Part shown: positions 9,289-31,607 of the stretch, in pieces
Layout: every line of letters begins with the position of its first letter
How positions within the stretch are numbered: the first letter of the stretch is position 1
Source of the DNA: Veterinaerplatzvirus T145P1
DNA: 44,816 bases
Sequence record: OZ035767.1
Strand: one strand, 5' to 3'
Translations under genes and position numbers: made by a program
Notes under the pieces: model-generated
Told to the model about the DNA's origin: nothing
Seen by the model: only the letters and a program-made list of their open reading frames with translations
The model's database searches: none

Positions 9289-9292
9289 TTGC

Positions 9293-9338
9293 ATAGCACT
9301 TTTTGCTAAAGCGGTTATTCAACTTTGCTGTATAGTTA
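9293..9338 (+). promoter_or_regulatory. conserved palindrome-promoter element, copy 2
   Basis: ATAGCACTTTTTGCTAAA - 22 nt - TATAGTTACC then CATCGAAACGAAA leader. Confidence 0.6.
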
Positions 9339-9369
9339 CCTCATCGAAACGAAATGAGAGATTAAAGAA

Positions 9370-9618
9370 ATGAATAACGTTAAAAACATCATCAAGCTCG
9401 CTGCGGTTCTGTTTGCTTTTTATGCGGTAGTTCAGATTGTAGACCCAACAGGTGAGGCTGATGCCAATAGCAAGGCAAACAAATATACTGTTGAATTTGC
9501 TAAGGCTGAGCGAGCATGTCAGGAGCTTGTAGGTGGCAAAGTTGACCAAATCATGAAATACGGCAAAGAGGTTTGTAAGGACTCGGCTGCTAAGATTGCA
9601 AAAGAAAACACTAAGTAA
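9370..9618 (+). CDS. small secreted/membrane protein (moron-like, own promoter)
   Basis: 82 aa with hydrophobic N-terminal signal-like segment; preceded by promoter-like element 9293-9338. Confidence 0.5.
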   Translation: MNNVKNIIKLAAVLFAFYAVVQIVDPTGEADANSKANKYTVEFAKAERACQELVGGKVDQIMKYGKEVCKDSAAKIAKENTK

Positions 9619-9656
9619 TAGAATACATACTCACAAACAATAAGAGGATTAACAAA

Positions 9657-9971
9657 ATGGCAAAGTTCAAACTTTCACTGGCAGCACTCCCAGACTTTAA
9701 GCTACCAGTAAAATTTAAGCTGGCTAACGACCAGGATGTAGAGGTTATCTTTACAGTCAAGCATAAGAAAACATCTGAGTTGCAGGAGCTGCTTAGCAAG
9801 GAAGACTTGAGCACAAAAGAGCTTATTATGGCAATTGCTTCTGATTGGGATCTGGAAGAAGAATACAACGAAGATAACGTTAATGAGTTCTCAGACCTTT
9901 TCCCGGCCTCAACTGTTGCACTGACAACTGCTTACATGCAAGCGCTTGCTGGTCAGCGAGTAAAAAACTAA
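9657..9971 (+). CDS. tail assembly chaperone (lambda G-like)
   Basis: 104 aa directly upstream of tape measure; ends in slippery heptamer A AAA AAC. Confidence 0.7.
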   Translation: MAKFKLSLAALPDFKLPVKFKLANDQDVEVIFTVKHKKTSELQELLSKEDLSTKELIMAIASDWDLEEEYNEDNVNEFSDLFPASTVALTTAYMQALAGQRVKN

Positions 9972-10291
9972 AACGAGCGGTGTATCTACAGTACCAGTCA
10001 GAGCCAACTGATGCCGAACTGGAAGCTATTGGGATGCGCCGCTCTGATTACGAAGATGAAGAGCCTGAGGTTTTACACTTCGACGACAACATGATGAAGG
10101 CGTGGGACATTTATTGTTCAATGGCTACGCAGTGGAGAGTAGGAGCCAATGGAGCTACAGGGTTAGATTACAACGTGCTAAATTTCCTCTTTAGAGTGTA
10201 TAATGTTTCTGAAGAAGAATTGGTACTCAGCGATTTACGCATCCTTGAAGCTAAGGCTCTTGAGATGATGGATAACCTGAGAAAAAAATAA
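9657..10291 (+). CDS. tail assembly chaperone frameshift fusion (lambda GT-like; -1 frameshift at 9962-9968)
   Basis: Downstream ORF (track 9980-10291) is in the -1 frame relative to G and has no convincing own start; slippery site A_AAA_AAC overlaps the G stop. Confidence 0.6.
9962..9968 (+). other. -1 programmed ribosomal frameshift slippery heptamer (A AAA AAC)
   Basis: X XXY YYZ heptamer at the last sense codons of the G-like chaperone; -1 frame continues open for 103 codons. Confidence 0.6.
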
Positions 10292-10312
10292 CCCGCTTCG
10301 GCGGGTTTTCTA
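10291..10312 (+). terminator. rho-independent terminator (partial, before tape measure)
   Basis: CCCGC-TTCG-GCGGG hairpin then TTTTC. Confidence 0.55.
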
Positions 10313-10326
10313 TTATGGAGGCTTAG

Positions 10327-13308: not shown

Positions 13309-13338
13309 TTAACGGGGCTTCGGCCCCTAAGGATTTTT

Positions 13339-13689
13339 ATGGCAATAGATAATTTTACATGGTGTACACAAATCCAGAATGGTGGAGCTGCATTTTCCAA
13401 TACAAACAATGTTCGTATTGTTAGCTTTGGCAATGGTTTTGAGCAAAGAGGAACAGGGGGCTACCGCAGTAATAAGCGCAGCTACCAGATGACCTATACA
13501 AACAAGGACTGGCGTGAGGTTATGGATTTCTGCTTCAATCACATCATCACACCATTCTTCTGGAAAACACCGCAAGGTGATACTTCTATGTTTGTTATTC
13601 AGCAGGATAGCATTTCAGTTACACCAATTAGTAGCGAAGTTCAGACTGTAAACATGCAATTCGTAGAAGTTTTTAGCTCAATGCGTTAA
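13339..13689 (+). CDS. minor tail protein (lambda M-like)
   Basis: 116 aa immediately after tape measure. Confidence 0.65.
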   Translation: MAIDNFTWCTQIQNGGAAFSNTNNVRIVSFGNGFEQRGTGGYRSNKRSYQMTYTNKDWREVMDFCFNHIITPFFWKTPQGDTSMFVIQQDSISVTPISSEVQTVNMQFVEVFSSMR

Positions 13690-13692
13690 ACT

Positions 13693-13716
13693 AAGCCCCT
13701 ATATGGGGCTTTTTGT
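13693..13716 (+). terminator. terminator-like hairpin
   Basis: AGCCCC-TATA-TGGGGCT then T5. Confidence 0.55.
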
Positions 13717-13727
13717 TGGAGAAATAT

Positions 13728-14483
13728 ATGTTAAGTCCAAAGTTTGAAAATCAGTTGCAAAGCCTTTTCCCTGGTGAGATTGTGACACTAATCCAGGTTG
13801 ACGGCACGTCCTTCGGGGGGCTCGTTTATTCGTTCCACAATGAGAACATCTCATACACTCCAGAAGAAATCATGCTGGCTCAAATGAATGGCGAGCCACT
13901 ACCAGAGAAAACCATCACATTTCGTGGTGAAGAGTACGGGCCTAGACCATTTGGAATCTCTGGCATAAATATGACTTCTGACGGAAAGGCCAATAAGGTT
14001 ACATTAACGGTATCAAACGTTGACCAGCGTATTAGTGCGTTAATCCGAACATACAACGGACTTGTTAAAGCTAAGGTTACAATCTGGATTACTACGCGCG
14101 ATAACATCAATGAGGATGGAAGCATTGCTGACGGGGACTATCGCAGATTCGTTTACTTTATTGAGCGACCGAAGCAGGTTGACTACAAGACCGCATCGTT
14201 TGAGCTAAGCAGCCCGATGGATATGGATGGTATTTATATCCCCGCAAGACTTGTTCAGTCTGTTTGCTATTGGGCTTCTAGGGGTTGGTATCGCAGCGGT
14301 AATGGATGCGACTACGCTGGCAATCGTTATTTTGACAAAGACGACAACCCGGTCAGTGATCCGTCTCTAGATTTCTGCGCCGGAACAGTTAATAGCTGTA
14401 AGATTAGATTTGGAGAGAATAACCAGCTTTCATTTGGTGGATGCGCAGCAGCAAGCCTTCAAGCTAAAGCGAATCAGAGCTAA
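13728..14483 (+). CDS. minor tail protein (lambda L-like)
   Basis: Start moved to ATG 13728 after RBS; size and position match lambda L; Cys-rich C-terminus. Confidence 0.75.
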   Translation: MLSPKFENQLQSLFPGEIVTLIQVDGTSFGGLVYSFHNENISYTPEEIMLAQMNGEPLPEKTITFRGEEYGPRPFGISGINMTSDGKANKVTLTVSNVDQRISALIRTYNGLVKAKVTIWITTRDNINEDGSIADGDYRRFVYFIERPKQVDYKTASFELSSPMDMDGIYIPARLVQSVCYWASRGWYRSGNGCDYAGNRYFDKDDNPVSDPSLDFCAGTVNSCKIRFGENNQLSFGGCAAASLQAKANQS

Positions 14484-14492
14484 GGGGGAACA

Positions 14493-15251
14493 ATGTTAAC
14501 ACCAAAAGTTAAACTGGAAATCTTCCAGCACGCAAAGGAAGTTTACCCGCATGAGTGCTGTGGAGTTGTTACGCAGAAGGGCCGCGCTCAGAAGTATCAC
14601 AGAATCACCAATGTCAGCAAGGACCCGGAGAATGAGTTTATCCTTGATTCGAATGAGTATGCAGATGTTCTCTTTGAGTTGGCTCACAATGAATCTATTG
14701 TTTACGTAGTTCACTCTCATACGGGTGATGGCGCAACAACAAGGCCTAGCCCAGCGGATATTTGCAGCTGTAATGAATGCGAGGTTCCTTACGTTATTGT
14801 AAGCATCCCAGAGTTGGACATGAGAATCCTTGAGCCATCAACCATGCCTCTGATTGGTCGACCTTGGGGGCTTGGTAGCTTTGATTGCTGGGAGTTGGTA
14901 ATGGCGTTCCACAAGAAATACGGCGTCAAACTGAATGACTACCGAGTTAATTACCCGTGGTGGGAGAAGCGGTACAATGAAAATATCTATGACGACAACT
15001 GGATTAAGGAAGGATTTGAGTTGGTGAAAACTTCAGATATTACTGTTGGCTCAATGATTATGATGCAGGTCCAGAGTAAAGTAACAAACCACGCCGGAAT
15101 CTACATTGGCAACAACAGATTCATTCACCATCTTTATGGTAAAATGAGTTCCATTGATATCTATTCCGATTACTGGCGAGAGCGCACAGTGAGAATCGTT
15201 CGCCATAAGGATTTACCAGAGGATGTAATCTATGACCCAGAAACTGATTGA
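14493..15251 (+). CDS. tail assembly protein (lambda K-like, JAB/MPN + NlpC/P60)
   Basis: JAMM-like motif HSHTGDG...SPAD; position after L. Confidence 0.8.
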   Translation: MLTPKVKLEIFQHAKEVYPHECCGVVTQKGRAQKYHRITNVSKDPENEFILDSNEYADVLFELAHNESIVYVVHSHTGDGATTRPSPADICSCNECEVPYVIVSIPELDMRILEPSTMPLIGRPWGLGSFDCWELVMAFHKKYGVKLNDYRVNYPWWEKRYNENIYDDNWIKEGFELVKTSDITVGSMIMMQVQSKVTNHAGIYIGNNRFIHHLYGKMSSIDIYSDYWRERTVRIVRHKDLPEDVIYDPETD

Positions 15252-15804
15252 TATTAAGTTAGGTCTGTCTCTAGGCCGCAAGTTTGGAAAGATTCACCAG
15301 ATGGCAGTGAATAGCGTGCCGGAGGCAATGAGAGCACTTTGCTCACAGATTCCTGCATTCAAGGAGTTCATGAATAGCCACGTTGGTCAAAATACAAGGT
15401 ACGCCGTGTTCGTTGATGGTAAAAATGTGAACGAGCATCGAATTTCTGATTTTAGTGCCGTTCAGGAGATACGAATCTTGCCAATTCCGCAGGGTCGCAA
15501 GTCAGGCGGCTTGTTTCAGACAATTTTAGGTGCAGCCCTTATCGTTGTTGGTATCTACACTGGCCAGGCTTATCTTGTTGGTGCAGGTATCTCTCTTGCT
15601 GCTGGCGGTGTTGCTCAGTTGCTTTCACCTCAAGCTACTGGGTTGAAAGACCAAAGTAACCAGACAAGTAACAGGGCATCTTACGCATTCGGCTCGGCTG
15701 TAAACACGGTAGCCGCTGGCTACCCGGTTTGCCTACCGTATGGCTATCGAACGGTTGGAGGTTCGGTGTTTAGCGCCGGCTCGTATAGTGAAGACATTGC
15801 TTAA
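15232..15804 (+). CDS. tail assembly protein (lambda I-like)
   Basis: 190 aa with hydrophobic Gly/Ala-rich segment; overlaps K; precedes J. Confidence 0.7.
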   Translation: MTQKLIDIKLGLSLGRKFGKIHQMAVNSVPEAMRALCSQIPAFKEFMNSHVGQNTRYAVFVDGKNVNEHRISDFSAVQEIRILPIPQGRKSGGLFQTILGAALIVVGIYTGQAYLVGAGISLAAGGVAQLLSPQATGLKDQSNQTSNRASYAFGSAVNTVAAGYPVCLPYGYRTVGGSVFSAGSYSEDIA

Positions 15805-15810
15805 ATACCA

Positions 15811-15836
15811 TACCCGCCTAGTGCGGGTTTTTTATT
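15811..15836 (+). terminator. rho-independent terminator
   Basis: ACCCGC-CTAGT-GCGGGT then T6. Confidence 0.7.
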
Positions 15837-15884
15837 TAGTGTAGAATGGCACAAATGATCAAAACAAACATGAGGCTTTGTGAT

Positions 15885-18800
15885 ATGGCTGAAGATATTA
15901 AGATTTATGGTGCTAAGGGTGGTAGCCAGAAGCAGCACCAACCAGTGGAACAAGAAGACAACCTGATTTCATTAAACAAGGTCAAGGTATTACTTGCGGT
16001 TGCTGACGGCGAGGTTGACCCTAACTTCTCAATGAAAGATTTATACCTTGCTGACGTTCCGGTGCAAAACCAGGATGGTAGCTACAACTATGATGGTGTT
16101 CGCGCTGAGTTCCGTGCTGGCACGCAGTATCAGGACTATATCGCCGGGCTTGACGGTGCTAACTCAGAGATTCAGGCATCCAGAGAAATCAAGAACGATA
16201 CCCCGTACATCATTGCGGTTAACAATACTCAGCTTTCAGCAATTCGAGTTAAGCTATTTTGGCCTCGACTGGTTAAGCAAGAAAACAACGGAGACCTGAA
16301 CGGAACAACTTGCGAGTACGCAATTGACCTTTCTGTTAATGGTGGTGCTTACCAGGAATACACTCGCGGAGTTGCTAACGGCAAGACAACTACAGGTTAC
16401 GACCGAAGCATTCGCGTAAACCTTCCGGCAGAGTTTGATAGTGCGCTTGTTCGCATCCGTAAGATTACAGCTGACTCAACGAGCAGCACACTGGTTAACG
16501 GAATGCAGATTACAACCTATCAGGAAGTAATCGACGCCAAATTCCGCTACCCGCTTACGGCTCTGGTCTATGTTGAGTTTGGTTCTGACTTGTTCCCTAA
16601 CGGCATCCCGACAATCTCAATAAAGAAGCGTTGGAAGCTAATTCAGGTACCGACAAACTACGACCCGGAGACAAGGACTTACAGCGGGACATGGAATGGC
16701 TTATTCAAGATGGCATGGTCGAATAACCCGGCATGGGTTCTCTATGACCTGGTGACAAACCGACGCTATGGGCTTGACCAGCGAGAGTTGGGTGTAGAGA
16801 TTGATAAATGGGGCTTGTATGAAGCCGCGCAATTCTGTGACCAGATGGTTCCAGATGGTAAGGGTGGTTTAGAGCCGCGTTACCTTTGCGATATGGTTGT
16901 GCAAAACAAGGTTGAGGCCTACACGCTAATTCGTGATATCTGCTCAATCTTCCGTGGTCTGACTTTCTATGACGGCGAAAAGATTGGCATCGTGGTTGAT
17001 AAGCCTCGCAACCCATCTTACATATTCACCAACGATAACGTTGTAAATGGATTGTTCAGCCGAACCTTTGCCAGTGATAAAAGCCTTTACACCACCGCAA
17101 ACGTTCAGTTTGATGATGTAGAAAACAACTACCAGCAGGATGTTGAGCCGGTATTTGAACTGGAAGCTACTCGCCGATTCGGATTCAATCCTGTCGACCT
17201 CACGGCAATTGGATGCACGAGAAGAAGTGAAGCAAACAGACGCGGCAGATGGCTCCTAAAAACCAACCTGAGAAGCGAAACCATAAGCTTCACTACCGGG
17301 CTGGAAGGCATGATTCCGATGATTGGTGAGGTGATTGCGGTCAATGACGCGGCATGGTCAAGCAACTATCAGTTAAACCTTTCTGGTCGCATTGAATCAG
17401 TTCAGGGATTGCAAGTTTTCACCCCGTTTAAAGTTGACGCAGCGCCGGGTGACAGAATTCTTCTGAACAAGCCTGACGGAAGTCCAGAAGCAAGAACTAT
17501 TGCCAGCGTTTCGGAAGATGGTAGGACAATCAACCTTAACACTGCTTTTAGCTTTGTTGCTCAGCCAGACACGGTATTTGCAATCGACAAGGATAACCTT
17601 GCTCTTCAGCAGTACGTTGTGACCGGGATTCAAAAGGCAGATACTGACGGCTCGGATTCATTCCAGTATACGATTACCGCTGTAGAGTATGACCCGAACA
17701 AGTATGACGAGATTGACTACGGCGTTAACATCGTTGACCGCCCAACTTCAATTGTTGAGCCTGACAGATTGTCGCCACCAGAAAACCTGACCGTGTCAAG
17801 TTATAGTAAGGTTGTTCAGGGCTTGTCGGTTGAGACGATGGTTATCGGATGGGATAAAGCGCCATACGCCAAAACATACAATGTTCAGTGGAGGAAAGAA
17901 AATGGTAACTGGATTAACGTACCAAGAACAGCAAGTACAGAGGTTGATATCGAAGGTATTTACGCGGGAATCTATGATGTTAGGGTTCGCAGCGTATCAG
18001 ATACTGAAAACGTGTCTGCATGGTCTGACATTGTAACGGTATCGCTAACTGGCAAGATTGGTCGTCCATCGGCACCTACGGTTATAACGGCATCAACTGA
18101 TGAAGTATTTGGTATCCGTGTTAAGTGGGGTTTCCCTGATGGCTCTGGCGATACTGCTTATACTGAACTTCAGCAGGTTGCTGATAATGGTGATGGTACA
18201 TACAATCCTGATAACGCAAGTTTGCTTACGTTACTTCCGTACCCAGCCTATGAATACTGGCACACGCCAATTCAGCCAGGCAAGGTTATCTGGTATCGCG
18301 CAAGATTGATTGACAGAATCGGAAATACGTCTGATTGGTCTAATTTCGCAAGAGGCATGAGTACTGACGACGCCAACATTATCAATGATTACATCAAGGT
18401 TGATATTGAGGGTTCTGAAGGATTCAAATACCTCGAGCAGAATGCGATTCAAAAGAATCAGGACATTCAGAATCAGGCAGAGTCAATTCTTGAGAACGCA
18501 TTGGCTAATGATGGTGATGTTCGTCGCATGACCAAGGAGAACGGCAAACGTAAGGCTGAATATGTTCAGGCGGTGAATCTCATAGCCGATGAAACTCAGG
18601 CACGCGTAGAGGCTCTTACGCAGCTTAAAGCGCAGATTGATGATGAGGTTGTTGGTCAGATTGCAACAATTGAAACAGCGCTAGCCACAGAGACAGAGGC
18701 AAGAGCGACAGCCGACACGGCTTTGAGCGCAAGGGTTGGTAATAACGAGGCGGCTCTAAACCAGAAGCTGGATGCTTTCTCTAATGCCACGTCAACTGGT

Positions 18801-19271
18801 GTACAGTACGGAATTAGTCTTGGCCTGAAATACAATGGACAGACTTATTCATCAGGCATGAGTATGGAACTTGTTGGTACTGGTGGGAATGTTCGCAGTC
18901 AGTTCATCTTTGACGCAAACAGATTCGCAATCAGTAACGGCATTGGTTCTGGTTCCGGTCAGTGGCAGCTCCCCTTCGTTGTCGAGAACGGAAACGTAAT
19001 CATCCAAAGCGCAGTAATCGGCGACGGATCAATTACTAACGCGAAGATTGGTAATATAATTTCATCAAATGATTATGTGGCAGGCTCTCAGGGGTGGGCG
19101 ATACTGAAAAGTGGTGCGTCAGAGTTCAATAACACAACTGTAAGGGGCAATCTTTACGCTAACAATGGTAACTTTGCTTTTAACGGAACCAATAACACGG
19201 TTCAGATTAACAATAACGGAATCACTGTAAACTTACCGAACGGAGGAAGAGTGGTAGTTGGAGTGTGGTAA
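15885..19271 (+). CDS. central tail fibre / host specificity protein (lambda J-like)
   Basis: About 1130 aa; N-terminus aligns by eye with lambda J; start chosen at ATG 15885 (RBS GAGG), could be 15846. Confidence 0.85.
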   Translation: MAEDIKIYGAKGGSQKQHQPVEQEDNLISLNKVKVLLAVADGEVDPNFSMKDLYLADVPVQNQDGSYNYDGVRAEFRAGTQYQDYIAGLDGANSEIQASREIKNDTPYIIAVNNTQLSAIRVKLFWPRLVKQENNGDLNGTTCEYAIDLSVNGGAYQEYTRGVANGKTTTGYDRSIRVNLPAEFDSALVRIRKITADSTSSTLVNGMQITTYQEVIDAKFRYPLTALVYVEFGSDLFPNGIPTISIKKRWKLIQVPTNYDPETRTYSGTWNGLFKMAWSNNPAWVLYDLVTNRRYGLDQRELGVEIDKWGLYEAAQFCDQMVPDGKGGLEPRYLCDMVVQNKVEAYTLIRDICSIFRGLTFYDGEKIGIVVDKPRNPSYIFTNDNVVNGLFSRTFASDKSLYTTANVQFDDVENNYQQDVEPVFELEATRRFGFNPVDLTAIGCTRRSEANRRGRWLLKTNLRSETISFTTGLEGMIPMIGEVIAVNDAAWSSNYQLNLSGRIESVQGLQVFTPFKVDAAPGDRILLNKPDGSPEARTIASVSEDGRTINLNTAFSFVAQPDTVFAIDKDNLALQQYVVTGIQKADTDGSDSFQYTITAVEYDPNKYDEIDYGVNIVDRPTSIVEPDRLSPPENLTVSSYSKVVQGLSVETMVIGWDKAPYAKTYNVQWRKENGNWINVPRTASTEVDIEGIYAGIYDVRVRSVSDTENVSAWSDIVTVSLTGKIGRPSAPTVITASTDEVFGIRVKWGFPDGSGDTAYTELQQVADNGDGTYNPDNASLLTLLPYPAYEYWHTPIQPGKVIWYRARLIDRIGNTSDWSNFARGMSTDDANIINDYIKVDIEGSEGFKYLEQNAIQKNQDIQNQAESILENALANDGDVRRMTKENGKRKAEYVQAVNLIADETQARVEALTQLKAQIDDEVVGQIATIETALATETEARATADTALSARVGNNEAALNQKLDAFSNATSTGVQYGISLGLKYNGQTYSSGMSMELVGTGGNVRSQFIFDANRFAISNGIGSGSGQWQLPFVVENGNVIIQSAVIGDGSITNAKIGNIISSNDYVAGSQGWAILKSGASEFNNTTVRGNLYANNGNFAFNGTNNTVQINNNGITVNLPNGGRVVVGVW

Positions 19272-19276
19272 TAAAT

Positions 19277-19305
19277 AAAGCCCCTTAATTGGGGCTTTTC
19301 TTTTA
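19277..19305. terminator. bidirectional terminator between convergent J and minus-strand tail genes
   Basis: AAAGCCCC-TTAATT-GGGGCTTT flanked by A/T runs on both sides. Confidence 0.7.
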
Positions 19306-20274
19306 GTAGAAGTTTGGGATAAATGGAAGTGCCATTGATATGTTCGTGTCGAAAGGAAACTGAGCGCCTGTCTGAGTTGAGTAGTTACCTATTACAGATC
19401 CAGGAACAGCCCTAACGGAGCCTCCAGACATGCAAACACCCTTGTATCGTAAGTTGTTATACCCTCCGGTAACTCTAGTCGTAGCGCCGCACCTAAGCAG
19501 CGGGAAGAAACCACCATTTATTGACTGATATCCATTGCTTATTTGTATAAATCCACCAAGAACGAATGGGCGGCGAACACTTGAAAAAACAATCTGACCA
19601 GAACTATTTGACATTGTGAGTCCAGGCCCGGCCGGTGGTGGTTCATTCCTGAATATCACCAGCTGAACATGGGTACTTGCCGCAACATCATCTGTACCTC
19701 CGTAGGTTATATCCCTACACCATATTGTTGATCCATCTGATTCAAGTGATACGTTTGGATTATCCCACTTGCCGAATGGTATTCCGCTAACTGGTAGCGA
19801 TGCTGCACCGTTAACCTGTATGCCCCCAACCCAGGCCGCAGACATTAGCCGCGAGTTGCTTGATATAGCAAGGAAATCAGTTGAGTTCTCAACAAGTATT
19901 CCAGGACTTGATGAGGATGAAGCCGGTAGTATCTCAAAGCAATTACCAGCAAAGTCAATTATTCGACCATTAGCACCATTGAAGTTGCTGAGAGTTATCC
20001 TGCCAGTTCCGTCATTTACCTTTTGAAACCCGTTCATGTAATAAACTTCGGGTATAACATCGTAAGCGTCAACGTGGACTGCCTTCGTTGGTAGGCAGAA
20101 AGCCGTAGAGCCAGGAGACATTGTCAATCCAAAATCCCACGAGATTGCCGGGGTTGAAAGTCCATTGGTATTTATTGATCCAGTCACAGCAGGTGCCCTT
20201 AATCCTGCCGTGATTTCCATCGCTGGTCTTCCGTCATTGAGGTCAATCAATATACCCTGCGGCATTATTTCCAC
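19303..20274 (-). CDS. tail-associated protein, candidate receptor-binding protein
   Basis: 323 aa Gly/Ser/Asn-rich, convergent to J, co-transcribed with a small lipoprotein; function inferred from context. Confidence 0.45.
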
Positions 20275-20510
20275 TCCTTACTGCCGTGATCTGCAACAGA
20301 ACCGCCGTAACCGCCGCCAGATTTGCTTTCAATGCCAGCGTAGCGAATATCAACCTCACCAGCCGGAACAACTACACCGCCTTTCCACTTAGCTACGCAC
20401 ACGCCGTTTGCTTGTGTTGCACACCACCCATCAGGTCGAGGACCAGAAGAACAACCTACTGTCATGATTACTGCCGCCGAGATGATTGCTGATTTGATGA
20501 AGTTAGTCAT
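20265..20510 (-). CDS. small outer-membrane lipoprotein, Cor/Llp-like superinfection exclusion candidate
   Basis: Start moved to ATG 20510 (RBS AAGGAA); signal peptide with lipobox-like TVGC; about 81 aa. Confidence 0.5.
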
Positions 20511-20546: not shown

Positions 20547-20594
20547 GTAATAATACAACCGTCAGTGCGGAATGTCTTTAGCTATTCGTGCTAT
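20547..20594 (-). promoter_or_regulatory. conserved palindrome-promoter element, copy 3 (minus strand)
   Basis: Reverse complement reads ATAGCACGAATAGCTAAA ... TATTATTAC ... CATCGAAACGAAAC upstream of the lipoprotein gene. Confidence 0.5.
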
Positions 20595-20692
20595 TGCATA
20601 CACGTAACCGATGTAACTAGATGTATACAATCTCATCCGCGGAAAATGATATACGCACTGTTACGCAAATTTACGCATTGGTTACATTAAAA

Positions 20693-20750
20693 TATCTATA
20701 TATATCAACCTTTTACTCTTATTATTATTATTATATATATTACTGTGTAT
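20693..20750. repeat. AT-rich repeat copy A with (TTA)n microsatellite
   Basis: ATCTATATATATCAACCTTTTACT-(TTA)n-TATATAT..ACTGTGTATA; near-identical to 39261-39326. Confidence 0.8.
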
Positions 20751-20852
20751 ATCATGTAACTACTTCTATAGAGTGTTCCGGTTATAATTTTAATATCATG
20801 TGGATTTATACAGTATTGCGCTGCAGCTATACCAATGCACCCTCAGCAATAA

Positions 20853-21251
20853 ATGATATACACGATATACACGATGGTTACATTGAGCTATAGCTGGGCC
20901 GAGATGCTAAAAAACGTAACTAGTGCCAATGCCTACACGGAATTACAAGGATTCACACGTAAACTTAAATCAACGATTGGCAAAACCAATTGGACTGGTT
21001 ACGGTGCCGAATATATAGTTAACTCATCGAAAGCAAACAACCAGAGAGATACAGAAATGACCTACTACATTATCAAAGAGAAAAACAACGCACTGTTCGG
21101 TGATTGCTACTTTGGCGGCCCTGCTGGATATACCACAGATAAGAAAGAGGCTGACAGATTCGAGACTAAAGAAGAAGCCCGAGATGTGCTGACTGGTTAC
21201 TTCACTGAAGAAGATTTGAAGTCTGTTAAAGTGGTTAAGGTTAAGGAATAA
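20853..21251 (+). CDS. hypothetical protein (start uncertain; may be 21057)
   Basis: ORF emerges from the AT-rich repeat region; best RBS (GAGAGA) precedes internal ATG at 21057. Confidence 0.35.
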   Translation: MIYTIYTMVTLSYSWAEMLKNVTSANAYTELQGFTRKLKSTIGKTNWTGYGAEYIVNSSKANNQRDTEMTYYIIKEKNNALFGDCYFGGPAGYTTDKKEADRFETKEEARDVLTGYFTEEDLKSVKVVKVKE

Positions 21252-21254
21252 AAT

Positions 21255-21452
21255 ATGAAGGCTTTTATAGACATAAATAAGTCACCATACAACGACGAGA
21301 AAGATCCCGAGGTAAGATTAAGGGTAAAATTTAGCACAGGAAGGGAGATAAATATAACAACTACCTGTTCTGATTTAGCGAAAGCACTTATGGGGTGTAG
21401 TGAAGTTCCTGTTACTGTTTCAACGAGAAATGTTGAGGTGAAAATAAAATGA
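21255..21452 (+). CDS. hypothetical protein
   Basis: 65 aa, RBS AAGGAA, ATGA-coupled to the downstream gene. Confidence 0.5.
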   Translation: MKAFIDINKSPYNDEKDPEVRLRVKFSTGREINITTTCSDLAKALMGCSEVPVTVSTRNVEVKIK

Positions 21453-22414
21453 CTTTCAGGGTTTACACACGAGAGGAGCTAAGCAACGAGGATTACCACT
21501 CAGAGCAAGATCACATCTCAGGTAGTTCACTTGTCGAGATTATCCAGGGCTCACCAGCTAAGTGGAAATTTAAACAGCGCAACAATGATAGCAAGGCTCT
21601 TAAGTTTGGAACGCTGAGTCACACGTACATCCTAGAAGGTGACATGTTTGACAAAGAATACCTTCGAGCTACAGACCTTGACGCGATTGAAGGCTTAATT
21701 ACAAGCCAGGCAGGATTAGCAGCAGCACTTAAAAAAGTCGGTGTGGCTGGAACATCAGGGAAGGGCTATAGCGAGCTTGTAGAGATGATGTATCGTTCTG
21801 GCGAGGACTGGCCCATTAAGTGGCTAATTGATCAGCTGGAAAGCGCTCAAGCGCTTGTGGAGGGTAAGGAGCTAGTTAGCGCAGCAGACTATGACAAAGT
21901 TGTGGCTATGCGTGAGGTTCTTTGCAATATTCCGGCATACAATGCAATCGTGAATAGTGAGACGGCGCAGAAAGAGTTATCAATCTTCGGTGAGATTCTC
22001 GGCGTCGGCGTTAAGATTCGAATTGACCATGTTGATGTTGTTGATGGCGTTGTTCGGATCACGGATTATAAAACGACAGCCGACGCAAGCCCTGAAGGAT
22101 TTGGTAAGTCTGCATTTAATCACGGATACCTTGCAAAAATGGCGCTTCAGCGCGATCTGTTTGTGAAAGCATTTAACGAGAAGCGCAAGGTTGTTGTAGG
22201 ATTGCTGGCGCAGGAGAAGGTGGAGCCATACCTACCAATGCTGTACACACTAACCGACGAACAGCTACGAATTGGTCGCCTTCAGTATCTTGAGGCACTT
22301 GCAACTTACAAGAAGTGCAAGGAGCTTGATATTTGGCCTGGATATTCTAACGGCATTACAGAGCAAGAGCTATTGGTTCCTGATTGGGCCATTAAACAAT
22401 ATAGAGAGATATAA
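21449..22414 (+). CDS. putative PD-(D/E)XK-family recombination exonuclease
   Basis: 321 aa with D...DYK motif (ITDYKTT); sits next to ERF and SSB genes. Confidence 0.5.
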   Translation: MTFRVYTREELSNEDYHSEQDHISGSSLVEIIQGSPAKWKFKQRNNDSKALKFGTLSHTYILEGDMFDKEYLRATDLDAIEGLITSQAGLAAALKKVGVAGTSGKGYSELVEMMYRSGEDWPIKWLIDQLESAQALVEGKELVSAADYDKVVAMREVLCNIPAYNAIVNSETAQKELSIFGEILGVGVKIRIDHVDVVDGVVRITDYKTTADASPEGFGKSAFNHGYLAKMALQRDLFVKAFNEKRKVVVGLLAQEKVEPYLPMLYTLTDEQLRIGRLQYLEALATYKKCKELDIWPGYSNGITEQELLVPDWAIKQYREI

Positions 22415-22415
22415 A

Positions 22416-22880
22416 ATGAACAAAGATTGCTGGCAGACTCCTTTAGACTTATTCAAACCGATAGATGATAAATACAAATTCAAGGTTGACGTGTGCGCAA
22501 GCCAAGAAAACGCGCTTTGTAAATATTACTGGACTGTAGATGATGACTGCTTGCAACAGGATTGGGGAGATGATGGTGGTTTCGTTTGGTGCAATCCACC
22601 ATATAGCAATCCATTACCATTTGTTGAAAAGTGCCAGCAATACGGCTATGCGGTCATGCTATTGAATCAGGATACGTCAACAAAATGGGCTAAGATAGTC
22701 TTTGAAAAAGCATCAAAGGTTATACTTTTATCAGACAGGGTTAGGTTTATAAATCCAGTAACAATGGAGGTTGGTAAGTCAAATCCTAAATGCCAGATGA
22801 TTGTAGTTTTCGACAGGCGTAGCAATTCTGGAGTTGATATACGTTGGTGTTCAATAAAAGAAATTCATAAGCAAATTTAA
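22416..22880 (+). CDS. dam: DNA N6-adenine methyltransferase (phage Dam-type)
   Basis: Start ATG 22416 with RBS; NPPY catalytic motif (WCNPPYSN); small phage Dam architecture. Confidence 0.8.
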   Translation: MNKDCWQTPLDLFKPIDDKYKFKVDVCASQENALCKYYWTVDDDCLQQDWGDDGGFVWCNPPYSNPLPFVEKCQQYGYAVMLLNQDTSTKWAKIVFEKASKVILLSDRVRFINPVTMEVGKSNPKCQMIVVFDRRSNSGVDIRWCSIKEIHKQI

Positions 22881-22925
22881 ATAGCATGAATTGCTAAAGA
22901 CAAAACTAAAGGGTGTGGGTATGAT
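22881..22925 (+). promoter_or_regulatory. conserved palindrome-promoter element, copy 4
   Basis: ATAGCATGAATTGCTAAA - about 23 nt - TATGATTA; starts right at the methyltransferase stop. Confidence 0.5.
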
Positions 22926-22954
22926 TACCCAATCAACAACGAACGAGGTTAAAG

Positions 22955-23605
22955 ATGAAAATTTCAGAATCATGCAAGTCAATTTTAAACGCTCTACACA
23001 CCGCCAAATCGCTATTTGCGAAGGCTGAAAAATCAAAACAGAACTCACACCTCAAGAACAGATACAGCACCCTTGATGATGTTCTTGCCGCTGTAGAACC
23101 AGGCCTTGAAGAATGTGGTCTTGTAATGTTTCAGAGCGTAATTGATAGCGAAGCTACTGGACTGCTGAAGGTTGAAACGAAGTTGTTCCATGCAGAGTCA
23201 GGCGAGTGGGTTAGCTTCTTAATGATTGTCCCTATCAGCAAGAATGATGCTCAAGGTTACGGATCTGCGCTTACATATGCTCGACGCTACGGAATTACAG
23301 CAGCTTTAGGTCTTAGTCAGGCAGATGACGATGGTAATCTCGCAGCTAAAGGCGTTAAAGACTTTAAACGTGAGCTTGAGAAGTGTAATAGTCTTGATGA
23401 GCTACGTAACGTATGGAAAGAGGCTAAGCAATCACTAGACGCTGCGGGATGGAAGGTTTTTGAACCTCACATTATCGAGCGCAAGGCAGAGATTGAAGCA
23501 AATGCAGCAACTGGCTTTAACCCTGCAACACCAAAGAAAGTTGCAGAAAAAAGTAGTACTGAAGAAAAGACTGAAGTAGAATCACAACAAATCGACACAT
23601 TCTAA
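22955..23605 (+). CDS. ERF-like single-strand annealing protein
   Basis: 216 aa with GSALTYARRYG-type signature; adjacent to SSB. Confidence 0.6.
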   Translation: MKISESCKSILNALHTAKSLFAKAEKSKQNSHLKNRYSTLDDVLAAVEPGLEECGLVMFQSVIDSEATGLLKVETKLFHAESGEWVSFLMIVPISKNDAQGYGSALTYARRYGITAALGLSQADDDGNLAAKGVKDFKRELEKCNSLDELRNVWKEAKQSLDAAGWKVFEPHIIERKAEIEANAATGFNPATPKKVAEKSSTEEKTEVESQQIDTF

Positions 23606-23646
23606 ATTTAACGGGGCTGCGGCCCCAACCAATAGAGAGATAAAAC

Positions 23647-24072
23647 ATGCACGTAATTACTGGTCAGATTCGACGCGCTCCATTCACTAAAGAAGGTCAT
23701 AATGCTAATGGTACCTGGAAAATGTTTGCGGTTGATTTGAGTGAGCGATACAAAGATAAAGATGGTCAGACTCAGTATAGTAACTATCGCGCAGTCTTCT
23801 TCGCGAAAGAGTCAATGTTAGATTGGTATAATGAAGCTTTTCAAGAGGGTAAAGTTGTTAGCGTTAGCGCAGAGACTCTTTCTGTTGATGTTAGAGATAA
23901 AGATGGCAAGACTTACGTTACTGTCAACATGAACAATCCTAGACTTGAGTTTAGTCAGCGCGGTGAAGGTGGCGTGCAGCAGCAACCTAGACAACAGCAA
24001 CAAGCACAACAGCAACAACAGAATCAACAGCCAAAACAGCAAAAGCAATTCGAAGATGATATTCCTTTCTAA
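23647..24072 (+). CDS. ssb: single-stranded DNA-binding protein
   Basis: OB-fold-like N-terminus, Gln/Pro-rich linker, acidic C-terminal tail ending DDIPF. Confidence 0.85.
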   Translation: MHVITGQIRRAPFTKEGHNANGTWKMFAVDLSERYKDKDGQTQYSNYRAVFFAKESMLDWYNEAFQEGKVVSVSAETLSVDVRDKDGKTYVTVNMNNPRLEFSQRGEGGVQQQPRQQQQAQQQQQNQQPKQQKQFEDDIPF

Positions 24073-24076: not shown

Positions 24077-24101
24077 AAGGCCCCTTTTGGGGCCTTTTTT
24101 A
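24077..24101. terminator. bidirectional terminator between ssb and convergent tail fibre gene
   Basis: AAGGCCCC-TTTT-GGGGCCTT hairpin with flanking T-run. Confidence 0.7.
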
Positions 24102-26435: not shown

Positions 26436-26458
26436 TGTGTAGAGTCTCCATTTGTAAA

Positions 26459-26476
26459 ATAGCACGAATTGCTAAA
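26459..26476. promoter_or_regulatory. orphan copy of the palindrome (no canonical downstream -10 box)
   Basis: ATAGCACGAATTGCTAAA, 24 nt upstream of the minus-strand tail fibre start codon. Confidence 0.4.
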
Positions 26477-26499
26477 GTGGATTGTAGCATCTTTGAGTC

Positions 26500-26524
26500 A
26501 TAAAAAAACCTCCCGAAGGAGGTT
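26500..26524 (-). terminator. rho-independent terminator of primase transcript (minus strand)
   Basis: AACCTCC-CGAA-GGAGGTT hairpin followed by T-run on the minus strand. Confidence 0.7.
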
Positions 26525-27504: not shown

Positions 27505-27984
27505 TCAAATCGTGCTGTTTTGCTCTTTCTTCTTTTGGTTCTCTAATTTTATCTTGCGCCATGAACGACACTCTGGCTTAGTGGCTAATTCAGCCTCAGT
27601 GACGACTCGCAGCATATGGCGCTTTTTGCACCGAAGTGTCAGCGGTTTCCCGTTGCCGTCGAATTGCAGGTCTGGTCGGCAGAATGTAGCGCGAAAACCT
27701 TCTCCATTTCGCTTATAGTAGTTGTGAGAAAGTTGAGCCCCACGCGCAGAAATCATACCGCGCTTAAACCATTCTTCTACAGCCTGTGGTGTTACCTTTA
27801 ACTGCTTTGCGATATTCGCCTTTGTGCCGAAGAAATCAAGAACTATCTCTAGCCGCGCGCGTAGCCCGGCTCTTACTTCATCTTTTAAAACATAGTAGCC
27901 TGAAGGTCGTTTACGTTGCTTTTTGTCTTCGGTGCGGATGGTTCCGTTATTGCCGTTAATTGTTCGCTTGTCGACTGTATTCAT
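27505..27984 (-). CDS. HTH DNA-binding protein, putative transcriptional regulator
   Basis: 159 aa, basic; HTH-like segment TKANIAKQLKVTPQAVEEWF; divergent from helicase promoter element. Confidence 0.5.
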   Translation of the reverse strand: MNTVDKRTINGNNGTIRTEDKKQRKRPSGYYVLKDEVRAGLRARLEIVLDFFGTKANIAKQLKVTPQAVEEWFKRGMISARGAQLSHNYYKRNGEGFRATFCRPDLQFDGNGKPLTLRCKKRHMLRVVTEAELATKPECRSWRKIKLENQKKKEQNSTI

Positions 27985-27996
27985 TTCATTACCTCA

Positions 27997-28040
27997 ATAG
28001 CATTTTTTGTTAAAAGTCATCCTGATTTGATGGTATTATT
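27997..28040 (+). promoter_or_regulatory. conserved palindrome-promoter element (variant), helicase operon
   Basis: ATAGCATTTTTTGTTAAAA - about 21 nt - GATGGTATTATT; sits between divergent regulator and helicase genes. Confidence 0.5.
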
Positions 28041-28085
28041 GTACTCAATTAAACGCTACAAGACAATTTTTATAGGAATTTAGAT

Positions 28086-30080
28086 ATGTTGCCTATCGAG
28101 AAGCTGGTTGCAAATTTCGATAAAGAAAGAATCAAACAGATTCAGAAAGACTATCAGTTTGGAGAGATAACCCCTTACGAATTCCAGTGCGTGACATTTG
28201 ATGCAATCGGAAAGGCTATTGGCAAGTACGAGGCACCATTTATCGCAGACCTTTCAGTATCTGCGGGTAAGACAATCATTCTTGCCATGATTGGTAAGCG
28301 CATGGAGCAGCTTGGGCTTCCCTATATGGTTCTCTCTCGCCAGTCAGAGATTATCAGCCAGAACTCAGAAGAGCTTCGTAATTTCGGCATACGTAATAGC
28401 GTCTATTGCGCTGGCCTTAACGTCAAATCAGTTTACTACCCAACTATAGTGGCCAGCGAGGGTACGGCAGCCAACGGCTTGTTTAAGGGGCTTGGTGACT
28501 ATGTTCCGGCAGTTATCGCTATAGATGAGTGTCACATGGTCGATCACATGGATATCGTGGAGGCTGAAGAGAATGAAGAAACATTTGAGCAAATGAGCAC
28601 AAAGAAAGGCGATATGGTTTTTAAGGATGGCGTAAACACAGGATTGCTTGGTACTGGTCGTGCGCAGTACACGCTAATTATCACCGAGATGAAACGTCGT
28701 TGTCGTGAGAAGTACGGGCGTGAGCTTCGTATATTCGGTCTTACTGGCAGCCCGTATCGTAACAACGATCATATCGTCGTTAGCAACCCAAACATCCGTG
28801 GATTCTGGCGCAAAACAGTGATTCAGGTGCCAACAAATTATCTGGTTGATTTGGGCTTCGTTGTTCCTACTGTTTATGGTGAAGTTGGTGACCTGGGTTA
28901 TGACCTTAGTGAGTTTGCGCCAGACGGAAGCGATGGCGTTAAAGACTTCAGCAAGAAAGAAATGGATGCAATGGCTGCAAAGATTCACGACAACCAATCA
29001 ATGACCCAAAAGATAATGGGTTTTGTTGTGAAAATACTCGAGACTCGTAACGCTGCATTGGTAACATGCGCTGGCAAACTCCATTGTGATGAGGCTGCTG
29101 CGGCACTACCAGATGGATACCCTTACGCCATCATCACAGACTCTACGGGAGAGAGGAAGCGCAGGGAGATTCTGGCTGATTGCCAGACAGGTAAGTACAA
29201 AATAATATTCCAGATTGGTTGTCTTACTACGGGCGTAAACCAGCCGCTGTGGGATACTAGCGTCATACTACGCAAGATTGGCAGCCTAACGCTTATGATT
29301 CAGCTTCTTGGTAGGGGGATGCGCAAACTTAATAGATCTCATATTGATGCTGGTTTTCATAAAGAAGATCACCTTGTGCTGGATTTTGCTGGCGCACTTG
29401 ATGATATGGCTGAGCTTTACTTTGACCCAATTATTGAAGAGATTCAGGCTGAGAAGTTTAAATCCTCAAGAAAAGGTGGCGATGAGGTTCGTCAGTGTCC
29501 GCAATGTGGATATGAAAATTCCCCATTCGCTCGTCGCTGTAGCAATAAGATTGATGGCGTTAGATGCGATCACTTCTTTCAGTTCACAATTTGCGAAGAC
29601 ATTACCGACGCGCAAACTAAATCGGTAATTAAAAAGGGTTGTGGCGCTCGCAATGACATAGCAGCAAAGGTTTGCAGGGAATGCGGCGAGATGCTTAAAG
29701 ACCCAAATGCTAACCTGACTGGCAAAATGTATCGTCGTGGTGATTACCTTCGTGTTTATGATTTTCAAGTTGGGTTAAGTAAGAATCAGACAGGCATTGT
29801 AGTTAAGTACAATATAATGGCTCATAACGGAGAGAGATTTAACGCTTGGGAGTTCTTTAATCCAGAATCAGACCATCGAGTTTGCAGTGTGCTCTGGAAG
29901 AACTTTTGCTTAGCTCATATTGAGAATCGCACGGAAGCGGCACGAATTGGCAGGCTTAAAAATGCCAGAATGATTATGACTAACGTAGATAAGTTCCGTG
30001 CGCCAGTTCAGGTTACGCATCGCCGGAATGCAAAAGGAAAGGACGTGATAGCGTTTAAGAATTTTGGAGAATTATTATGA
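28086..30080 (+). CDS. SF2 DNA helicase with C-terminal zinc-ribbon
   Basis: Walker A-like SAGKT, DECH box, QLLGRGMR motif VI, CPQCG...CRECG zinc ribbons. Confidence 0.8.
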   Translation: MLPIEKLVANFDKERIKQIQKDYQFGEITPYEFQCVTFDAIGKAIGKYEAPFIADLSVSAGKTIILAMIGKRMEQLGLPYMVLSRQSEIISQNSEELRNFGIRNSVYCAGLNVKSVYYPTIVASEGTAANGLFKGLGDYVPAVIAIDECHMVDHMDIVEAEENEETFEQMSTKKGDMVFKDGVNTGLLGTGRAQYTLIITEMKRRCREKYGRELRIFGLTGSPYRNNDHIVVSNPNIRGFWRKTVIQVPTNYLVDLGFVVPTVYGEVGDLGYDLSEFAPDGSDGVKDFSKKEMDAMAAKIHDNQSMTQKIMGFVVKILETRNAALVTCAGKLHCDEAAAALPDGYPYAIITDSTGERKRREILADCQTGKYKIIFQIGCLTTGVNQPLWDTSVILRKIGSLTLMIQLLGRGMRKLNRSHIDAGFHKEDHLVLDFAGALDDMAELYFDPIIEEIQAEKFKSSRKGGDEVRQCPQCGYENSPFARRCSNKIDGVRCDHFFQFTICEDITDAQTKSVIKKGCGARNDIAAKVCRECGEMLKDPNANLTGKMYRRGDYLRVYDFQVGLSKNQTGIVVKYNIMAHNGERFNAWEFFNPESDHRVCSVLWKNFCLAHIENRTEAARIGRLKNARMIMTNVDKFRAPVQVTHRRNAKGKDVIAFKNFGELL

Positions 30081-30496
30081 AGATTACAGATAAAGAAGAT
30101 TACATTGAGTTTTACCCGGGTCCGGTTAAGTCATGCCCTAAAGAGGATGACGAACAAATCTTTTGCTCTGATTGGGTTAAGTATAACTACCCAGATATGG
30201 TATTTTTCCATTGCGTGAATGAGGGAAAGAAAACCATTGGTCAAGCAAGAAAAGACCAGGCTAAGGGGCTTCTAAAAGGCGTATCAGACTGTATGTTTCT
30301 TATTCCTGAATCACTTCGAGGTAAGTATCCTTTCGGAGCTATAGAGCTAAAGAGGGCTGGCAAAACTCAAGCAAGTCCAGTCAGCGAAGAACAGAAGGCA
30401 TTCCTGAAAAGTGTAATGGAATCAGGCGGTTTCTCGGCAGTCGCCTACGGACGTGAGGGTTTTCTTGCAGCATTCAAAGAAATGATTTCAAAATAG
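30077..30496 (+). CDS. VRR-NUC domain nuclease
   Basis: 139 aa with PD-(D/E)XK-like D...ELK core; ATGA-coupled to helicase. Confidence 0.6.
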   Translation: MKITDKEDYIEFYPGPVKSCPKEDDEQIFCSDWVKYNYPDMVFFHCVNEGKKTIGQARKDQAKGLLKGVSDCMFLIPESLRGKYPFGAIELKRAGKTQASPVSEEQKAFLKSVMESGGFSAVAYGREGFLAAFKEMISK

Positions 30497-30538
30497 CACG
30501 AATTGCTAAAGGCGATTTTAAAAGATGGGGTATAGTTA
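30493..30538 (+). promoter_or_regulatory. conserved palindrome-promoter element
   Basis: ATAGCACGAATTGCTAAA - 22 nt - TATAGTTACTCCATCGAAACGAAAC; VRR-NUC stop TAG inside palindrome. Confidence 0.6.
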
Positions 30539-30572
30539 CTCCATCGAAACGAAACACAAAGAGAGAAATAAA

Positions 30573-31346: not shown

Positions 31347-31537
31347 TTAATGCAACTTGTGTAAAAGCAAATGGTTTCTTTACTCTACTTGAAGATTACG
31401 AAATTATCTTTAATTCAGATGGCGCAATAACAGTATTGAGCGATAATGGATGCTATTGGTTCGTTAGTTATCAAGGTGACGGGTATTACGGGTGTAGAGA
31501 TTCGAATGGAAAAGAAGTTAGCTTCTTAGTTGAATAG
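31343..31537 (+). CDS. hypothetical protein
   Basis: 64 aa, ATGA overlap; stop embedded in promoter element. Confidence 0.5.
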   Translation: MINATCVKANGFFTLLEDYEIIFNSDGAITVLSDNGCYWFVSYQGDGYYGCRDSNGKEVSFLVE

Positions 31538-31578
31538 CACTTTTTGTTAAAACTCAAATCCACGTATGGATTATATTA
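31534..31578 (+). promoter_or_regulatory. conserved palindrome-promoter element (variant)
   Basis: ATAGCACTTTTTGTTAAA - about 21 nt - TATATTA. Confidence 0.5.
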
Positions 31579-31607
31579 AGCACATCAACAACACATAGGA
31601 TTAAGAG

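Follow-up and report, generated by a model that had tools for sequence, protein, structure and literature searches.

What do the two AT-rich, repeat-flanked segments lying 18.5 kb apart in the genome of Veterinaerplatzvirus T145P1 (OZ035767.1) do, given that the replication origin of T1-like phages has been reported as not found (PMC7718038, PMC11447400)? The window (the whole stretch of DNA analysed, 44,816 nucleotides) is, on sequence grounds, a complete or near-complete genome of an Rtp-like siphovirus of the T1 family (Drexlerviridae, Braunvirinae), with 85–97% identity to 2725-N35, SU57, Rtp and EC3a. One segment, copy A, is the locus at about 20.7 kb upstream of the recE operon, and the other, copy B, occupies the gap at about 39.3 kb beside the pac and genome-start region. 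It is very probable that both are functional cis elements, bound by protein and easily unwound. More tentatively, we read them as paralogous cis-acting DNA-unwinding modules, most likely paired replication origins of the iteron-plus-unwinding-element type, possibly activated by transcription; as candidates for the origins of the T1 family they are the best to date.

Among exact direct repeats in the window, the longest are a 27-mer (20691–20717 and 39259–39285) and a 22-mer (20719–20740 and 39292–39313). The 26-mer ATATCTATATATATCAACCTTTTACT has exactly two occurrences, both on the plus strand (20692–20717 and 39260–39285), against a chance expectation of none in 100 shuffles even at three mismatches. 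On the 3′ side of the 27-mer, each copy has a TTA tract, then a TATATAT run and then ACTGTGTATA, the tract being (TTA)5.3 at 20719–20734 and (TTA)7.3 at 39286–39307 by Tandem Repeats Finder, and the stretch common to A and B gives 67 matches over 74 versus 81 nt. The original prediction, that an AT-rich tract recurs almost identically with a different number of TTA triplets, is borne out by these exact repeats and by (TTA)5 versus (TTA)7. It had also proposed an alignment as a check on whether the likeness was low-complexity only; because the G/C-bearing words TATCAACCTTTTACT and ACTGTGTATA match between A and B as well, the similarity is not mere AT-richness. The cores are 12.3% GC compared with 44.4% for the genome. 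The parts of the two copies, all on the plus strand unless stated, are as follows.

20589–20647: conserved left flank of copy A (identity 0.88–0.92), with GTAAC-type motifs ACGTAACC, ATGTAACT and ATGTATAC and CCGCGG at 20637–20642.
20648–20687: left array of copy A, with GATATACGC (20648–56), TTACGC (20661–66), TTACGC (20671–76) and GGTTACAT(T) (20680–88), period about 10 bp.
20688–20744: AT core of copy A, 57 nt and 12% GC, with TAAAAT (20688–20693), the 27-mer, (TTA)5 (20719–20734) and (TA)n to 20741 (from stability, exact repeat and Tandem Repeats Finder).
20742–20760: right arm of copy A, ACTGTGTATATC-ATGTAAC, with inverted GATATACAC at 20745–53 (minus-strand match) and inverted GTTACAT (from the sequence).
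20771–20798: spacer of copy A, GAGTGTTCCGGTTATAATTTTAATATCA (identity 0.91), with TGTTCCG at 20774–80, found also in copy B at 39353–59 by A/B alignment.
20855–20894: second array of copy A, with tandem GATATACAC x2 (20855–72), GATGGTTACATT (20873–84) and TTGAGC-TATAGC (20883–94); Tandem Repeats Finder period 9, 2.3 copies, 100%.
39162–39255: left side of copy B, with GGATATACGCGTATCC (39162–77), a GTCAC-N8-GTGAC inverted repeat (39196–39213), TTACGC (39228–33), GATATATACAC (39234–44) and GATATACA (39247–54); GATATAC at 39163 and 39247 (from the sequence).
39256–39319: AT core of copy B, with TATAAT (39256–61), the 27-mer (39259–39285), (TTA)7 (39286–39307), (TA)n and GTATAC (from stability and repeats).
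39320–39359: right arm of copy B, TGTGTATAC (inverted ATACAC at 39321–26), and the common TGTTCCG at 39353–59 (from sequence and alignment).

Copy B has the same plan as copy A, and GATATAC-type repeats stand on both sides of each; the GATATAC(A/G)C repeats said to flank copy A are indeed present at 20648–20688 and 20855–20884. GATATACRC has six matches in the window where 0.47 were expected (about a 13-fold excess), five of them in the two regions (four in 20648–20872 and one at 39163), and the looser motif [AT]TAC[AG]C has seven matches in 20598–20867 and six in 39166–39501, with a genome-wide count equal to expectation. A third site for GATATACGC, at 31646, lies within a small open reading frame (ORF) and is probably due to chance. 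The left array of copy A, spelled GATATACGC...GGTTACATT over 20648–20688, has its hexamers at 20651 (ATACGC), 20661 (TTACGC), 20671 (TTACGC) and 20682 (TTACAT); left arrays are phased with a period of about 10 bp, and similar ones stand left of the core in Rtp B, EC3a B, T1 B, Jk06 and TH30. On the other side of the core, the inverted GTGTATATC-ATGTAAC at 20745–20760 pairs with the left GATATACGC in a DNA fold, and T1 carries GTTGTATATCGTGTAAC at the equivalent position. Copy A has an array of at least three short direct repeats, as GATATACGC-TTACGC-TTACGC-TTACAT spaced by about 10 bp plus the tandem GATATACAC x2. The duplicated unit proved larger than originally described, since in Rtp and IME542 an entire unit of about 125 nt is duplicated at locus B (TCCGCGGAAA...(T/A)TACGC repeats...core...TGTATATCATGTA, with a CATGTA end), and in EC3a the A/B similarity extends into the second repeat array (...CACATTGAGCTATAGCT). 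The core consensus of integration host factor (IHF), TATCAACCTTTTA, was matched as a regular expression inside the 27-mer at 20703–20715 (A) and 39271–39283 (B), so that both window copies have WATCAANNNNTTR after an A/T tract, the binding itself being predicted only.

The second array of copy A is a local conservation peak (0.90) and overlaps the first codons of ORF 20853–21251. The ORF product starts MIYTIYTM, encoded by the GATATACAC tandem, with in-frame ATGs at 20874 and 20904, and in relatives the start is annotated at about 20820 (EC3a), as a 64-aa C-terminal gene only (2725-N35) or not at all (SU57). The true start of this ORF is uncertain, and the second array may therefore be non-coding.

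Duplex stability was computed from nearest-neighbour free energies in sliding windows of 40 and 80 bp over 12 whole genomes from five subfamilies or genera: the window, Rtp, 2725-N35, EC3a, T1, Jk06, TLS, Klebsiella phage KP36, the 99.5%-related isolates OZ035765 and OZ035793, and the Nouzillyviruses TH30 and TH21. In the window, the core of copy B is the least stable duplex at both 40 and 80 bp (z 5.1–5.7) and that of copy A the second least stable (z 4.4–5.1). Loci B and A are the two least stable 80-bp segments genome-wide in all 12 genomes, with z of 4.6–6.3, compared with at most 4.4 and usually about 3.5 for the third site; this holds even in T1 and TLS, whose cores barely align with those of the window. 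The anatomy first proposed for copy A, short repeats beside a tract prone to unwinding, is therefore present, with repeats adjoining an AT-rich segment of exceptionally low helical stability throughout the family genomes.

The two loci are also paralogous across the family. A and B were significantly similar within every genome tested (z 11–39 versus shuffles), and in KP36 they have an identical core of 52 nt. In T1, copies A and B are closer to one another than to the corresponding copies of Rtp-like phages, which points to concerted evolution or shared constraint. An unbiased scan of 260 nt on either side of both cores for 7-mers common to A and B and rare elsewhere returned a different word in each lineage, as listed here.

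Window: GATATAC, 4+2 at A+B, 6 elsewhere, P 5e-7.
Rtp: CCGCGGA, 2+4 at A+B, 0 elsewhere, P 7e-9.
T1: TGTAACA, 4+2 at A+B, 0 elsewhere, P 5e-9.
KP36: ATCTTAC, 10+3 at A+B, 6 elsewhere, P 7e-16.
TLS: GTGAACA, 2+2 at A+B, 4 elsewhere, P 3e-5.

Downstream tandem arrays with lineage-specific units recur in the same relative place, namely CGATTAACA x3 in T1 B, GTGAACA x2-GCGATGGAACA in TLS B, GTAGACGC x2 in Jk06 B, and in EC3a B. Lineage-specific words present at both A and B are the pattern that would be expected of sites co-evolving with a phage-encoded binder, unlike host-factor sites.

Conservation was measured as mean pairwise identity among 11 distinct Braunvirinae sequences. The non-coding stretch 20589–20798 has an identity of 0.88–0.98, with a peak of 0.96–0.98 over 20679–20768, compared with 0.72–0.88 for the adjoining ORF, and the 131-nt module A is 98.5% identical in Rtp, compared with 89.7% for the surrounding 1 kb; by this measure the module is under purifying selection. 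The TTA tract had been taken for a microsatellite, a view that comparison among isolates does not favour, as the triplet number is near-fixed at each locus and not free-running: (TTA)5 at locus A in nearly all of the 11 sequences, and (TTA)7 at locus B in five phages, with n of 4–7 across genera. Copy B is 9 nt longer than copy A. Compared with the window, copy A in OZ035765 and OZ035793 differs only by a base substitution at 20619 and a 1-nt TTA-to-TA tract change, with a further substitution at 20851, outside the module, in one of them; the core of copy B is identical in the two. These isolates are 246–693 bp longer than the window, their offset rising from about 0 at copy A to +247 and +694 at copy B, so that one or more indels must lie in the early region between the modules (between 20770 and 38300). 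Module A stands upstream of the recE-erf-ssb operon in every genome, including KP36, where the operon is inverted and relocated. A host or plasmid source was rejected because blastn searches of 5,426 E. coli genomes and 72,556 plasmids with the module gave no match, and scans of IMG/VR recovered few relatives (11, 7 and 6 loci).

In the window, packaging and structural genes at 30–19271 are followed by DUF6453 and cor-like lipoprotein genes on the minus strand (19303–20510), an Rtp46-like ORF, RecE, Erf and SSB on the plus strand (20853–24072) and, beyond SSB, a primase, a Cro-like helix-turn-helix (HTH) protein, a RadD-like superfamily 2 (SF2) helicase, the DUF3987 helicase and many small genes. 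Both copies had been placed at junctions where transcription diverges. For the window this is correct, copy A lying between the cor-like lipoprotein gene (20265–20510, minus) and plus-strand ORFs from 20853, and copy B between small minus-strand genes ending at about 38717 and a plus-strand gene at 39603; as a general rule it does not hold, the genes at locus A being co-oriented in TLS and KP36.

The case for origins is that phased direct and inverted repeats, an easily opened core rich in TA steps, a possible IHF bend in the Braunvirinae and two matched copies amount to the standard iteron-plus-unwinding anatomy. In the proposed mechanism, a phage-encoded, lineage-specific DNA-binding protein would sit on the short repeats, here (T/A)TACGC and GATATAC(A/G)C, which are spaced about 10 bp apart left of the core, inverted right of it and arrayed in tandem about 110 bp downstream. 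In the Braunvirinae, host IHF may bend the DNA at TATCAACCTTTTA. The near-pure A/T core of 57–73 bp, with its (TTA)n and (TA)n, would then melt, with help from negative supercoiling generated by neighbouring transcription, whereupon the phage helicase and Zn-ribbon primase would load and host Pol III would extend. Classical work on T1 reportedly indicated that its DNA synthesis depends on the host for elongation functions but not for initiation functions, as would suit an origin specified by the phage. The window encodes its own primase and two helicases, of which the following is the candidate partner of the modules.

35348–36931, minus strand: putative partner, a DUF3987 helicase-family protein, homologue of T1 gp09 and Rtp67 (Pfam DUF3987, 5.6e-42; PHROG 2373 'DNA helicase').

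The DUF3987 family has been assigned to superfamily 6 (SF6), replicative helicases that are related to MCM and carry a winged helix at the C-terminus (PMC4889955), and one of its members is a demonstrated helicase (PMC11724360). The window protein is the best candidate binder and would contact the repeats through that winged helix; the Cro-like HTH protein (27505–27984) or a small helicase-adjoining protein of 111 aa (34920–35255) may act instead. In Rtp and EC3a, where module A is 98.5% identical, the DUF3987 protein has 98% identity; among phages sharing that module, this protein is the most conserved replication protein (98%, versus 83% for the SF2 helicase and 54–81% for the primase). Divergence between genera with different repeats is greatest in its C-terminal 100 aa, KP36 having 46% identity there versus 72% for the core. 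This conservation in parallel with the module and its repeats is suggestive of the protein as the binder; searches of PDB and NCBIfam with it returned nothing informative. The second helicase, at 28086–30080 on the plus strand, is RadD/YejH-like, of SF2, with zinc ribbons.

Several observations count against origins. The repeats are very short (6–9 bp), shorter than classical iterons, and the densest [AT]TAC[AG]C cluster, three in 60 nt, only modestly exceeds the shuffle maximum (mean 2.2). Outside the Braunvirinae (T1, TLS, Jk06, KP36) the IHF consensus is not kept, nor is it in EC3a B, and about 1.4 matches per genome are expected by chance. GC skew in the window does no more than follow gene orientation and is no independent indication of an origin, and BLASTP of the DUF3987 protein against the alpha protein of P4 found no similarity. 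The downstream tandem arrays lie just upstream of promoter-like elements in T1 B and window A, which fits transcription regulation, and the high conservation could partly reflect the recombinational spread of a mosaic joint.

A more elaborate proposal, which we consider decidedly unlikely as a whole, is that A and B form a cooperating, Drexlerviridae-specific origin pair, self-contained and initiator-less, in which the MCM-related DUF3987 (SF6) helicase would read the repeats by its winged helix and load on the melted core, the (TTA)n/(TA)n sequence would serve as a periodic single-strand ladder for the AAA+ oligomer, and concerted evolution would keep the copies matched. Such a ladder would be analogous to the DnaA-trios of bacterial origins.

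An origin pair of this type has close precedents in SPP1 and P4, and other known systems offer parallels. SPP1, likewise a virulent siphovirus of the pac type with a genome of about 44 kb, has two origin modules set apart from each other, each with repeats that its initiator binds. This initiator, G38P, recognises oriL and oriR as discrete regions, and oriL is built of repeats and an adjacent AT-rich unwinding element (PMC5737612). However, the AB boxes and G38P are unrelated to anything in the window and oriL lies inside the initiator gene, whereas the window modules are intergenic, with much shorter repeats, a (TTA)n/(TA)n core and a binder that is a candidate only. In P4, ori and crr are kilobases apart and have 8-bp iterons (TGTTCACC) of either orientation, recurring every 10–11 bp or so around an AT stretch, recognised by the C-terminal domain of the primase-helicase alpha; P4 differs in that ori and crr are not its least stable sites, in that alpha lacks BLASTP similarity to the DUF3987 protein, and in its circular replication. 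The TLS repeats GTGAACA and TGTTCAC, for example CGTGAACACGTGAACAGCGATGGAACA (TLS 28755–29100 and 140–470), contain the core of the P4 alpha iteron GGTGAACA (P4 9300–9420), a resemblance that may be coincidence; the paper describing TLS reported no iteron-like repeats in that genome. The lambda origin and iteron plasmids similarly have direct repeats adjoining an AT-rich unwinding region, possibly with help from IHF, but the single origin of lambda lies within gene O and has four iterons of about 19 bp, compared with repeats of 6–9 bp in two intergenic copies in the window. Finally, T4 oriF and oriG and the T7 primary origin consist of a promoter followed by an AT-rich unwinding region, and the modules resemble them in having a −10-like TAWAAT hexamer after phage-specific sites at the upstream edge of the AT core, so that a transcript or R-loop could prime or activate initiation; here, however, the promoter is only putative, and T1-like phages have neither an RNA polymerase of their own nor known factors of the MotA/AsiA type.

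T1 belongs to the seven classical T phages, and Drexlerviridae often contaminate fermentations and are candidates for phage therapy. If correct, an origin assignment here would be the first for a classical phage family, of a kind of element already known. With two family-wide candidate sites, each under 300 bp, and a candidate recognition motif per lineage, the question of the T1-like origin becomes directly testable.

Of the other explanations, the one that survives best, possible but on balance doubtful, is that A and B are early-gene control regions similar to lambda OL/OR. This reading accounts for most of what the origin reading does. A phage regulator, for example the Cro-like HTH protein, would bind the lineage-specific repeats that head two early operons, either activating promoters that lack a −35 element or shutting them, and the AT core would be promoter or UP-like DNA. 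Lambda OL and OR are likewise two separated early control regions with immunity-specific protein sites, and lineage-specific sites common to two regions are an operator signature as much as they are what the origin reading expects. Both modules are upstream of early operons, with B always at a divergent junction, and in most copies a TAWAAT hexamer comes right after the last left repeat (TTACAT-TAAAAT, TTACAC-TATAAT), while TTTACT-N16-18-TAT(A/T)(A/T)T spans the (TTA)n tract in both copies. The EC3a module bears annotated predictions of the PromoterHunter type, and the tandem arrays stand just upstream of TATAGC or TTGACA promoter-like elements: that of copy A abuts TATAGC at 20889–94 and that of T1 B ends 24 nt before TTGACA. 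Few canonical promoters have been found in T1-like genomes (PMC11447400), so that non-canonical ones must exist. In the literature we found no transcript-mapping study of a Drexlerviridae phage.

Canonical promoter signals are lacking from the cores, and a canonical promoter-hub function, one of the alternatives first offered, is not supported. In a position weight matrix (PWM) test of 13 modules from seven phages, the best sigma-70 match failed to exceed dinucleotide shuffles in 12 of the 13 and often scored worse; for T1 A and TLS A, all 200 of 200 shuffles scored at least as high. At a threshold of 9 bits the PWM scan found no site in copy A and a single one in B, TTTACG-18-TACAAT (9.7 bits), and sigma-70 consensus scans for −35/−10 pairs with 16–18 bp spacing gave counts not above shuffles. 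TATAAT at 20783–88 in the spacer of copy A has no −35 partner, and the core-flanking repeats overlap no convincing promoter. The lambda sites are 17-bp dyads over strong canonical promoters, whereas the window cores are long A/T tracts, and 57–90 bp of near-pure A/T far exceeds what a promoter needs. In TLS and KP36 locus A does not lie at a divergent junction, and the regulator's own intergenic region, between the HTH and helicase genes at 27985–28085, contains no GATATAC or TTACGC. In T1, TLS and KP36 the neighbouring operons have near-consensus or 21-nt-repeat promoters of their own about 200–300 bp downstream of the module, next to the genes, and in the window there is such a promoter-like element for copy B at 39534–39562; the promoter-like elements are listed below, including those containing a 21-nt repeat, ATAGCAC-N3-TTGCTAAAG.

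T1: TTGACT-16-TATAAT at 30319–30346; TTGACA at 449–477.
TLS: TTGACT-16-TATAAT at 29110–29137; TTGACG-17-TAATAT at 523–551.
KP36: 21-nt-repeat element before recE.
Window: TTGACC-17-CAATAT at 39534–39562; 21-nt-repeat element at 20595–20576, minus strand, for cor.

Should the modules be control regions instead of origins, they would be a second non-canonical regulatory element beside the known 21-nt ATAGCAC...TAAAA repeats. A perfect 14-bp palindrome, CTGACACCTGTCAG, lies at 39370–39383 between copy B and TTGACC-17-CAATAT; it is possibly an operator, and is not a terminator because it lacks a T tract.

An improbable alternative is a recombination or architectural element, that is, flexible, easily opened DNA binding IHF, Fis and H-NS, where RecE/Erf recombination-dependent replication or mosaic exchange would have hot spots and not defined origins. 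It draws on the tie between copy A and the recE-erf-ssb operon, which persists even where the genome is rearranged, on the mosaic-joint-like DNA left of copy A, highly variable between phages (cor, anti-repressor and methylase insertions), and on the IHF consensus in both window copies, but it leaves unexplained the lineage-specific repeats common to A and B and the near-fixed core length per locus, and the host-factor site is not kept across the family.

That either copy is a packaging signal (pac or a terminase-recognition site), also suggested at the outset, is very unlikely. The records of T1, TLS, Rtp, EC3a and KP36 do open in the gap that holds copy B, and the pac of T1-like phages has been placed in this untranslated region (PMC7718038). 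Position 1 of T1 and TLS, however, is about 200 bp left of the AT core, that of TLS being the mapped pac site (PMC11447400), and this record-start stretch has TTGCAATGAT / GATTGTTGC repeats, found at about 39000–39100 in the window. A single pac site is described for the family, and copy A, 18.5 kb off, is far from the terminase and from those repeats, with no counterpart to them. The window stretch 38990–39100, a cluster of TTGCAATGAT, ATTGCAC and GATTGTTGC followed by GTGAGTGAGTG, is homologous to the opening point of the T1, TLS, EC3a and KP36 records and is probably the pac region, about 200 bp left of copy B.

A chance or neutral low-complexity duplication without function is scarcely credible: AT-rich microsatellite-like sequence arises easily, and copy A does vary between the two 99.5%-related isolates and the window, by the substitution and tract change given above, but the modules occupy the same two loci in five subfamilies or genera, are conserved beyond their flanking genes and have G/C-containing motifs common to both copies.

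Four further candidates were rejected. ORFs 20621–20893 and 39190–39537 cross the cores, but in different frames (YYYYY versus LLLLLL) and as low-complexity sequence; Rfam at the gathering threshold gave tRNA-Arg only; the folding energy of single-stranded DNA was no better than that of shuffles (z −0.6 to +0.8); and the downstream genes (20853–21251 versus 39603–40151, and the EC3a pair) showed no paralogy.

The 21-nt repeat ATAGCAC-N3-TTGCTAAAG occurs in about 16 copies ahead of genes of the window. It is known in TLS, T1, Rtp and Rogue1, its function being listed as an open question (PMC11447400). In several full-length copies, TATAGTTAC and a CATCGAAACGAAA leader follow about 22 nt on, and the core TAGCA-N5-TGCTA is a dyad centred at about −42 from the TATAGT hexamer, a class-II-activator-like position. 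The copies are as follows.

Plus strand: 2114–2162, 9291–9339, 22879–22927, 26456–26486, 27989–28019, 30491–30539, 31532–31580, 33444–33492, 40242–40303, 40540–40556, 42074–42122, 42586–42647 and 43451–43499.
Minus strand: 20576–20595, 37774–37794 and 38955–38973.

Near-identical families of terminators, each a GC hairpin with a T run, are reused in the window at 5581–5603 and 26500–26522, at 6625–6653, 9267–9295 and 44779–44807, and at 2587–2607, 13694–13714 and 24078–24098; one 23-nt terminator pair is 100% complementary in opposite orientation. A tRNA-Arg(TCT) lies at 44458–44534, as in other T1-like phages.

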